This document shows, piece by piece, positions 50,833 through 51,361 of a DNA stretch of 64,000 bases. Under the pieces are notes generated by a model. The model searched no databases and was not told the DNA's origin. It worked only from the letters and a program-made list of their open reading frames with translations. Within the stretch, counting starts at the first letter, position 1; each line of letters starts with the position of its first letter. The stretch comes from Escherichia phage EP_H11. The DNA is taken from sequence record OP688485; one strand, given 5' to 3'. Made by a program: the position numbers and the translations under genes.

Positions 50833-51361
50833 TAGCTGAGTTCTATTAAGGCACCTAACGGCCTAATAGTTGCTCTTCCGTAAAACAGATTCGATAGTCT
50901 GGGAAGAGCAGCTATATACTCTCATTAAGTAATGCGTATACATAGGGCACGATTAAGTTACGTCTCCGGCTATGGTTGCATTACGAATAGTTAGGTAGTG
51001 TCCCTATTCAGATTGTCCGGAACTGGATAGAGGATGAAGGTATTGTCGAAACCTTAGTGGGGACTGATGCGAACTACACTAAGGTTTATACCCTCTCAAC
51101 ACCTTTAGGGGCATCTACGTAGTATACCTTGCGTCACGCGTAGGGTGAGCGAGTTAAAGCCCAAAGTGGCTTTAGGGAGCGAATCCCAGGGGGAGGCTCG
51201 GGTGGGCAAGGTCAGACTCTCCGGAGGAGTTTAGTCTCGTGTACGCGGCGGCTGGCAGAGCCGCCGCTACACTCCAATTGGTTAAATTAGATAAGGGGCC
51301 GGTAGTTCCTACGTCCATTAGTTTAGGAGTTATTATTTGATTATGTTGAGGAACACTATTA
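50833..51361 (+). other. ORF-free, GC-enriched, highly structured non-coding region (candidate ncRNA, ribozyme or cis element)
   Basis: About 530 bp with no + strand ORF; complementary pairs tgctcttcc/ggaagagca, gtaatgc/gcattac, aaccttagtg/cactaaggtt (10 bp), aaagcc/ggcttt, gcggcggct/agccgccgc (9 bp). Confidence 0.4.

Follow-up and report, generated by a model that had tools for sequence, protein, structure and literature searches.

Comparative evidence for a large conserved non-coding RNA within an operon of IME392-like coliphages

We analysed a stretch of 64,000 nucleotides (nt) from Escherichia phage EP_H11 (record OP688485), hereafter the window, in which a 529-nt gap (50833-51361) separates an open reading frame (ORF) of 56 amino acids (aa; ATG 50662, stop 50830-50832) from one of 77 aa (51362-51595). 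Comparison with homologous gaps in related phages strongly supports the view that this gap encodes a conserved, multi-domain non-coding RNA of ~490 nt on the + strand. A structured RNA was among the alternatives that an initial annotation of the window had offered for the gap, and it has gained strong support, since the helices are kept through at least 23 double compensatory changes across two diverged lineages. That annotation had made its proposal depend on conservation and covariation in relatives; both are present, and structure prediction from the related phages detected the covariation.

Comparative evidence for a structured RNA

We reached the homologous gaps via the proteins of the flanking genes and then aligned them. 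They occur in IME392 (L001), L063, L064, L078, L079, L080, L006 and L007. Escherichia phage vB_EcoM_IME392 (116 kilobases, kb) is a close relative isolated on E. coli; the window is 93-98% identical to it, and the corresponding region is unannotated in its GenBank record. The others are metagenome contigs: L063 is 113 kb long, and L080, L006, L007 and L079 are all close to the window. We refer to the window side as lineage A and to L064 and L078 as lineage B. The two lineages are ~68% identical in the RNA, which equals their identity in the adjoining 119-aa gene.

In the alignment, invariant single-stranded blocks alternate with helices of differing but complementary sequence, and RNAalifold reports compensatory changes in 25 pairs. 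We scored 109 pairs in 16 helices against two controls, namely 500 shuffles and partners slid by 1-3 columns. Standard pairs fill 98.5% of cells (92.5±0.5 in shuffles and 37-47% with slid partners), and 23 pairs have changed on both sides, compared with 9.8±2.2 in shuffles (0/500 as high) and 1-5 with slid partners. Over 13 helices, G-U occurs in 55 cells and A-C in one. Since G-U is tolerated and A-C avoided, the pairing works on the + strand only, which speaks for hairpins of RNA, not of DNA, and excludes the - strand. The alignment by MAFFT was wrong in the 3' part; parsing that part by hand gave the same order of elements in both lineages and added further compensatory pairs: six in helix P6, three in P7 and two in P8.

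The initial annotation had called the gap the only long + strand stretch without an ORF, and this is borne out within the block of + strand genes (1 to ~59,900): counting + strand ORFs of at least 40 aa as cover, the runner-up spans 186 nt. Larger + strand gaps past ~59.9 kb reflect the switch of genes to the - strand. Stop codons crowd all six frames of the gap, and all frames are stop-rich in both lineages; we therefore rejected a pseudogene or small protein, the sole apparently shared ORF being frame-broken in L063. Every helix quoted in the annotation is present, including AAACCTTAGTG/CACTAAGGTTT with 11 base pairs (bp; 51049-59/51077-87), GCGGCGGCT/AGCCGCCGC with 9 bp (51245-53/51259-67) and ATAGTTGCTCTTCC/GGAAGAGCAGCTAT with 14 bp (50866-79/50902-15). 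The claimed enrichment in G+C (GC) is real and strong at 51101-51300, where a GC content of 0.57 makes the second highest 200-nt window of the 64 kb; over the gap as a whole it is modest (0.47 vs ~0.42-0.44 in the flanks).

Relative to shuffles of the gap itself, its folding energy has a z score of -3.6 on the + strand and -4.0 on the - strand. Set against the genome's own 529-nt windows it is ordinary, and we dropped the idea of a thermodynamic outlier. With a folding energy so unexceptional, thermodynamics alone cannot establish a structured RNA here; we regard the comparative evidence, conservation together with compensatory changes in related phages, as decisive. The 529-nt windows that fold most stably in the whole window lie in coding DNA at 12133-12960 (GC-adjusted z down to -3.65).

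Searches by sequence recovered few relatives. With blastn, the gap matched only IME392 among phages and none of 5,426 E. coli genomes. Loci in IMG/VR reached via the neighbouring proteins belonged to unrelated phages (nhmmer negative) or were absent. The 119-aa protein has a distant homologue in Pseudomonas phage QdP_Psa3, where the gap is absent, and the loci in Queuovirinae phages and L005 that carry a homologue of the 77-aa gene have no comparable gap either. There is no second copy of the gap sequence in the window, so a diversity-generating template or paralogue elsewhere in it was dropped. In Acinetobacter phage Ab1-TPeters (L081), the region 17400-20200 has only tiny annotated ORFs, on both strands, together with tRNA-Arg and tRNA-Met. 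Further RNA genes may lie in this region, but none of it matches the gap RNA.

Domains of the RNA and a covarying palindrome

The RNA comprises at least 16 helices in four domains (P0-P2, P3-P4, P5 and P6-P8) with long invariant single-stranded blocks between them (Table 1). In the 5' domain, Pm1 shows one compensatory change (G-C to U-A in L064), and the hypervariable P1 has changed on both sides in 11 of its 14 pairs; its three sequence versions, in the window, L064 and L078, are each fully paired. P2 adds two compensatory pairs and one A-U to G-U change. P0, P2a, P2b and P4 are invariant and so neither supported nor contradicted by covariation; inner P3 is invariant as well. The P0 block is identical in all seven sequences that cover it, and it is also the recombination junction of L078. 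That locus (L078 4864-5070) is a mosaic in which the 56-aa gene is 96.5% like lineage A and a 117-aa gene and the RNA belong to lineage B, the crossover lying inside the invariant block AGGCACCTAACGGCC. An A-like 56-aa gene next to a B-like RNA indicates that the RNA is not co-adapted to that gene.

A model built on the central domain (R1) scores 142-180 bits in all seven domain-bearing sequences and finds nothing elsewhere. P4a carries four compensatory pairs. In lineage B the columns of the candidate pseudoknot read AAUCC/GGAUU, amounting to two compensatory pairs, and this pairing would also remove a G-G mismatch in P3. Further 3', P5 has two compensatory pairs (CC/GG to GG/CC) and P5b another two, and P5c shows four one-sided Watson-Crick/G-U changes. 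P6 takes the form CAUUA-G-AUCC GGA GGAU-UGGUG in lineage B, so that both partners differ in all five outer pairs and in one inner pair; U-G pairs occur in the B version. In P8, lineage B has GAGG/CCUC (two compensatory pairs); an alternative pairing, GGGG/UUCC, is possible. The gap RNA contains no GNRA tetraloop on direct reading of the sequence.

The loop of P7 (51254-51258) differs in a distinct way. In lineage A it reads GGCAG in the window, CTGCC in L080, L006 and L007, and CCGCC in IME392 and L063; in lineage B it reads TCCGAG in L064 and CTTGGA in L078. Both orientations thus occur within each lineage, a sign that this DNA has undergone flip-flop inversion repeatedly. After P7 comes UCCAAUUGG, and we found no terminator-like site (a GC-rich hairpin with a U tract) in 50300-51900. 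The linker after P8 includes UUAGGAG (51323-29), used in L064 and L078 as the downstream gene's ribosome site; the 77-aa gene of the window has its own site, GAGGAA (51348-53).

Table 1. Coordinates of the proposed RNA, its elements and its surroundings in the window.
Feature	Position	Strand	Remarks
Conserved structured RNA (proposed)	50830..51316	+	~487 nt; from the stop codon of the 56-aa gene to just past hairpin P8
Hairpin Pm1, UAAUAG/CUAUUA	50830..50848	+	6 bp; invariant loop CUGAGUU; includes the upstream stop codon
Hairpin P0, AGGC/GCCU	50849..50864	+	within invariant block AGGCACCUAACGGCC
P1 capped by P1a	50866..50915	+	14 bp and 6 bp; P1 hypervariable
Single-stranded linker AUACUCUCAUUAA	50916..50928	+	near-invariant between lineages
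P2-P2a-P2b arm	50929..50984	+	holds invariant block GCACGAUUAAGUUACGUC (50947-50964)
Central domain: P3, P3a hairpin, P4-P4a arm	50989..51122	+	best-conserved part
Longest conserved block, CGGAACUGG(A/U)UAGAGGAUGAAGGUAUUGUCGAA	51018..51050	+	32/33 positions identical between lineages only 68% identical overall
Candidate pseudoknot, GAUGC (P4a loop) with GCAUC	51066..51070 / 51111..51115	+	from a post hoc screen; tentative
P5 domain	51126..51212	+	ACCUUGC/GCAAGGU closes variable P5a, P5b (loop CAAAGU) and P5c (loop GGAGG)
P6 hairpin	51214..51237	+	AGACU-CUCC GGA GGAG-UUU-AGUCU
P7 GC-rich hairpin	51239..51272	+	5+9 bp, without a U tract after it; 3 compensatory pairs between lineages
8-nt palindrome CCAAUUGG	51274..51281	+	1-2 nt after P7; proposed site of symmetric RNA-RNA pairing
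AAGGGG, then small hairpin P8 (GUAG UUC CUAC)	51293..51312	+	AAGGGG conserved
Poorly conserved linker	51317..51361	+	45-55% identity between lineages; ~25 extra nt in lineage A
Upstream genes, 119 aa (50310-50669) and 56 aa (50662-50832)	50310..50832	+	no domain or significant fold match
Downstream 77-aa gene	51362..51595	+	not tied to the RNA
Promoter-like motif copy AAAGGCTGTTAAACTGT	50219..50235	+	opens the unit holding the RNA
Next promoter-like motif	51616..51632	+	closes the unit
AAAGGCTGTTAANNTGT sites	3033, 6382, 7223, 9564, 11303, 13439, 15295, 18879	+	positions in the window
AAAGGCTGTTAANNTGT sites, continued	22480, 32906, 38067, 45024, 50219, 51616, 54331, 55406	+	

The palindrome that follows P7 suggests how copies of the RNA might meet. 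In lineage B it is AAGCGCUU: all eight bases differ from CCAAUUGG, and both versions are perfectly self-complementary. In each lineage the conserved GGGG lies 13 nt further on (14 in L078), and UUAAAU (UUCAAAU in L078) follows the palindrome. When the linker is shuffled, a palindrome falls at that place (±1 nt) with a probability of 0.014, and for both lineages dimerization is predicted to bring a gain of about -11 kcal/mol. Since neighbouring bases of this kind cannot pair within one chain, symmetric pairing of two copies is the simplest reading, and the absence of sequence conservation in the palindrome argues against a conserved binding protein. Self-association of the gap RNA via the palindrome is likely but unproven. 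In OLE and GOLLD RNAs, covarying palindromes have served as evidence for symmetric intermolecular pairs: the OLE L9.3 and GOLLD L21a loops switch among palindromes (GGCC, GAUC and AGCU in L9.3) and form symmetric kissing contacts in cryo-electron microscopy structures, the OLE dimer being symmetric (PMC12286853). Palindromic base-pairing also contributes to the dimers of HYER1 and HYER5 (PMC12990946).

Transcription unit and proposed mode of action

The window has 16 copies of a 17-nt motif, AAAGGCTGTTAANNTGT, all on the + strand and between genes, where 0.11 copies would be expected by chance; CCGCTCTTT..AGGG..CG usually lies upstream of it. The genes preceded by a copy include those for the topoisomerase, DNA polymerase and ligase, and the motif probably serves the phage's own multisubunit RNA polymerase as its promoter. 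Two copies bracket a unit that runs from the motif through the 119-aa gene, the 56-aa gene, the RNA and the 77-aa gene (a variable small gene across relatives) to the next motif. The same bracketing is found in L063, L064, L078 and IME392. With the unit bracketed in this way and no copy of the motif belonging to the RNA itself, the RNA is probably made as part of an operon transcript; and as the motif also precedes replication genes, it is probably made at the same time as those genes. A second recurring class of intergenic motif, TTATTTTTCAAATAA..CGATTT, appears at 2175-2322, 28798-28904 and 32898-33041, accompanied in the first two places by AAAGCCCGTTCTTTTGGGTGG, and may be another class of promoter or terminator. 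A run of TTC repeats (gcttcttcttcttcttcttctc) lies at ~2290-2315, directly upstream of a gene start.

Among the products of the phage genome are a family A DNA polymerase, topoisomerase, NAD-dependent ligase, dUTPase, dCTP deaminase and a split beta' of a multisubunit RNA polymerase. In this ~116-kb phage the domains of beta' are divided over two ORFs, 26582-28096 and 29676-31244, and the nearest polymerase relatives, in RP13, Ab1-TPeters and phiXF1, are only ~30% identical. IME392 has been listed among phages with a YerA41-like polymerase, and YerA41 has been compared with thymidine-hypermodified Carin-5 (PMC12686479). L063 (1421-1675 and 3861-4829) encodes an acyl-carrier-like protein (PP-binding) beside the ligase, and also a glycosyltransferase; both may be members of the DNA-modification pathway. 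The window also has a full-length ORF for a betaine/carnitine/choline transporter (BCCT) at 8174-9556 (460 aa; Pfam PF02028, E 1.6e-91), an unusual auxiliary gene for a lytic-looking phage genome.

The proteins encoded next to the RNA gave no hint of function. They have no Pfam match at the curated cutoff, and in PHROGs only families of unknown function were matched (56 aa and 77 aa). The structure model of the 119-aa protein is poor (predicted local distance difference test score, pLDDT, 51.5); that of the 56-aa protein is a small beta-beta-alpha-beta fold without a significant match in the PDB. The 119-aa and 56-aa genes precede the RNA in all three loci covering the full unit (L063, L064 and L078). 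The gene that follows varies: the window and L064 have the 77-aa gene, L078 has another gene, of 62 aa, and in L063 the 77-aa gene is frameshifted by a 1-nt deletion. The RNA is intact throughout. The 77-aa gene is present without the RNA in Queuovirinae loci (L002 and L003) and in L005. It shares ~72% DNA identity with the Queuovirinae phages phiG7, GottfriedDienst and WildeMaa, and in the metagenome contigs L002 and L003 its homologue lies a few genes downstream of queuosine-pathway genes; by these comparisons it looks like a horizontally exchanged small gene.

Our favoured reading in full is that of a stand-alone, operon-borne RNA that pairs with itself and acts in its own right, and we give it roughly even chances. 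The RNA would be made within the operon transcript by the phage's own multisubunit RNA polymerase, and would then probably be cut out of that transcript or be stable within it. It would act in trans rather than as a leader of the next gene. Two copies would pair via the palindrome after P7 and so form, like OLE, ROOL and GOLLD, a symmetric dimer or some larger assembly made of RNA only. As for its role, our guess is host takeover or counter-defence, with the RNA as the scaffold, sponge or cage of some macromolecule from the host or the phage.

Several points weigh against this reading. The processing of the gap RNA, its ends and its stability are matters that we infer, and it has no copy of the promoter-like motif of its own. 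The comparison set consists of eight sequences in two to three lineages, so that independent events are few and significance of the R-scape type is out of reach. Outer P3 is unsupported in lineage B, and competing pairings exist around 51111-51122. After adjustment for GC, the folding energy of the gap ranks 19th among 635 same-genome windows of 529 nt (z -1.9, top 3%). The palindrome was spotted post hoc, and with three 8-nt palindromes in lineage A the corrected chance is ~0.03-0.04; a DNA-level palindrome, for example a protein-binding site, could also account for it. DNA-pattern scans of IMG/VR and of GTDB genomes found no copy of the RNA, and a 20-mer scan of JGI metagenomes gave 12 matches, all of them chance matches inside coding DNA. 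Model R1 was negative in Acinetobacter phage Ab1-TPeters, in ~10 kb of QdP_Psa3 and in the rest of the window. Within the searches made, the RNA thus appears confined so far to IME392-like coliphages, with none in any other phage group. Finally, unlike ROOL and GOLLD, it does not lie beside tRNA genes; those RNAs are found in phages or prophages, often beside tRNA islands, and ARAGORN detected no tRNA or tmRNA anywhere in the 64-kb window.

The chief alternative places the function in cis: the region would be a long folded spacer within the operon mRNA and would control the processing, stability, read-through or translation of the neighbouring cistrons. The position of the RNA between two cistrons of one unit, without a promoter-like motif of its own, agrees with this, as do the upstream stop codon within Pm1 and, in L064 and L078, a 3' end adjoining the ribosome site of the next gene. 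However, the downstream gene is replaced in L078 or broken in L063 while the RNA stays intact, which argues against a dedicated leader; the constant link to a downstream gene that marks a leader or riboswitch was not found. Weak complementarity between 50866-50928 and the start of the 77-aa gene would also suit a cis element, but it is at background level (3rd of ~2100 windows; score 23, below the shuffle maximum of 25), and L078 has a different gene there, so we rejected long-range pairing or inverted-repeat ends. Nor was a terminator-like site found in 50300-51900. Known bacterial and phage leaders need far less size and complexity than ~490 nt, 16 helices and invariant unpaired blocks of up to 33 nt. 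We consider a cis-acting role somewhat unlikely.

Remaining alternatives and related RNAs

A new ribozyme, either a self-cleaving or self-processing RNA or a degenerate, ORF-less intron-like RNA, would explain the large size, the complexity, the highly conserved unpaired nucleotides and the candidate pseudoknot, features of a kind typical of catalytic RNAs. ORF-less HYERs derived from group II introns do exist and can dimerize through palindromes (PMC12990946). Against this, no ribozyme or intron model matched the gap of either lineage even at E<=10, RF00028 (group I) and RF00029 (group II) included, and there are no GNRA tetraloops. A group I intron was rejected on that ground and also because nothing is interrupted: both flanking ORFs, of 56 aa and 77 aa, are complete and have homologues elsewhere that stand alone. 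We likewise rejected a group II or HYER identity. Domain V of group II introns has a catalytic triad, a 2-nt bulge on the 3' strand and a GNRA loop; the bulge of P7 is on the 5' strand, and its 5-6-nt loop varies and flips. A ribozyme seems quite improbable to us.

Explanations at the DNA level had also been raised by the initial annotation, in the form of a replication origin or packaging element. On this view its hairpins would be DNA cruciforms, and the region would serve as an origin, as a packaging site or as clustered binding sites for proteins. It is indeed non-coding and locally GC-rich, it contains 8-nt palindromes, and its perfect GC-rich inverted repeat has a loop whose flipping is a DNA-level event. 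A function as DNA does not predict the strand-specific excess of G-U over A-C, and the substitutions are RNA-like. The region is also without iterons, tandem repeats or an AT-rich unwinding stretch, its repeats being only short two-copy matches; GC skew stays positive, with cumulative skew climbing smoothly across it and no change of skew; and the sequence of the palindrome is not conserved. An origin or packaging function is thus unsupported, and we judge a DNA-level element of any kind very improbable. A non-functional spacer or decayed gene with helices by chance would suit a folding energy merely in the top 3% and a region restricted to one small phage clade, but its probability is practically negligible given compensatory changes far above both the shuffled and the slid controls, a 33-nt block with one variable position between 68%-identical lineages, and the stops in all frames of both lineages with the shared small ORF broken in L063.

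Complex conserved non-coding RNAs of >400 nt are rare in bacteria and phages, and most of the large complex RNAs that are understood proved to be ribozymes or elaborate machines. To our knowledge, GOLLD, ROOL and OLE still have no known biochemical role. The present RNA has sat in a blind spot, with neither an annotation in the IME392 GenBank record nor a copy in IMG/VR by sequence-pattern scans. IME392 was isolated on E. coli, so that the genetics and biochemistry of the RNA should be tractable. We tentatively entertain, as a possibility on the doubtful side, that the RNA represents a class of large phage RNA not described before, one that either assembles via the palindrome into a symmetric dimer or cage of RNA only or is a new ribozyme, and that is made by the phage polymerase together with the replication genes and acts in takeover or counter-defence. 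If so, routine genetics and biochemistry could for the first time be applied to a large ornate phage RNA. If the RNA self-assembles, RNA-only quaternary structure would extend to coliphages, with a tractable system for studying its role during infection.

The gap matches none of the 4227 models of Rfam 15 in the covariance-model search that the initial annotation had proposed. No hit reached the gathering score in the whole window; at E<=10 the gap returned only a chance match to mir-242 on the - strand, and the gaps of L064, L078 and L080 returned none. RF01998 (GOLLD) and RF03087 (ROOL) gave no match even at that threshold, and the models of OLE and the raiA motif are not matched either. A sponge of the CsrB/RsmZ type was dropped: GGA motifs number 10, against 9.9±2.6 expected, and only six are at positions common to both lineages.

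Among other systems, the species 1 and 2 RNAs of the T4 tRNA cluster are stable RNAs of 70-140 nt, tRNA-linked and processed from phage polycistronic transcripts. They would resemble the gap RNA as non-coding RNAs that lie within a phage transcription unit and are freed by processing, and differ from it in that the gap RNA is ~490 nt long and has no tRNA-like part. HYERs share its large size and the lack of a protein-coding region; they are ORF-less derivatives of group II introns, and the gap RNA has neither domain V nor any other intron signature. OLE and raiA motif RNAs, which are bacterial, are large conserved non-coding RNAs as it is, but they are chromosomal rather than phage RNAs. The switching of the OLE L9.3 palindrome is the same type of evidence as the change from CCAAUUGG to AAGCGCUU, and OLE functions with protein partners (PMC12286853).

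By size, invariant unpaired blocks and phage setting, the gap RNA is closest in kind to GOLLD, ROOL and OLE, without being a member of these families. GOLLD, ROOL and the gap RNA all extend over several hundred nt, form many helices, are phage-borne and have no assigned function. The carrier phage infects E. coli, unlike the Lactobacillales, rumen or marine bacteria of GOLLD and ROOL. Conserved contacts between copies of GOLLD and ROOL include symmetric kissing loops with covarying palindromes (PMC12286853); the gap RNA also has a covarying palindrome, placed in a linker rather than in a hairpin loop. A further difference is cage formation, which for the gap RNA would be conjectural. Apparently, then, the gap RNA is a new, previously undescribed family among the large ornate phage RNAs.

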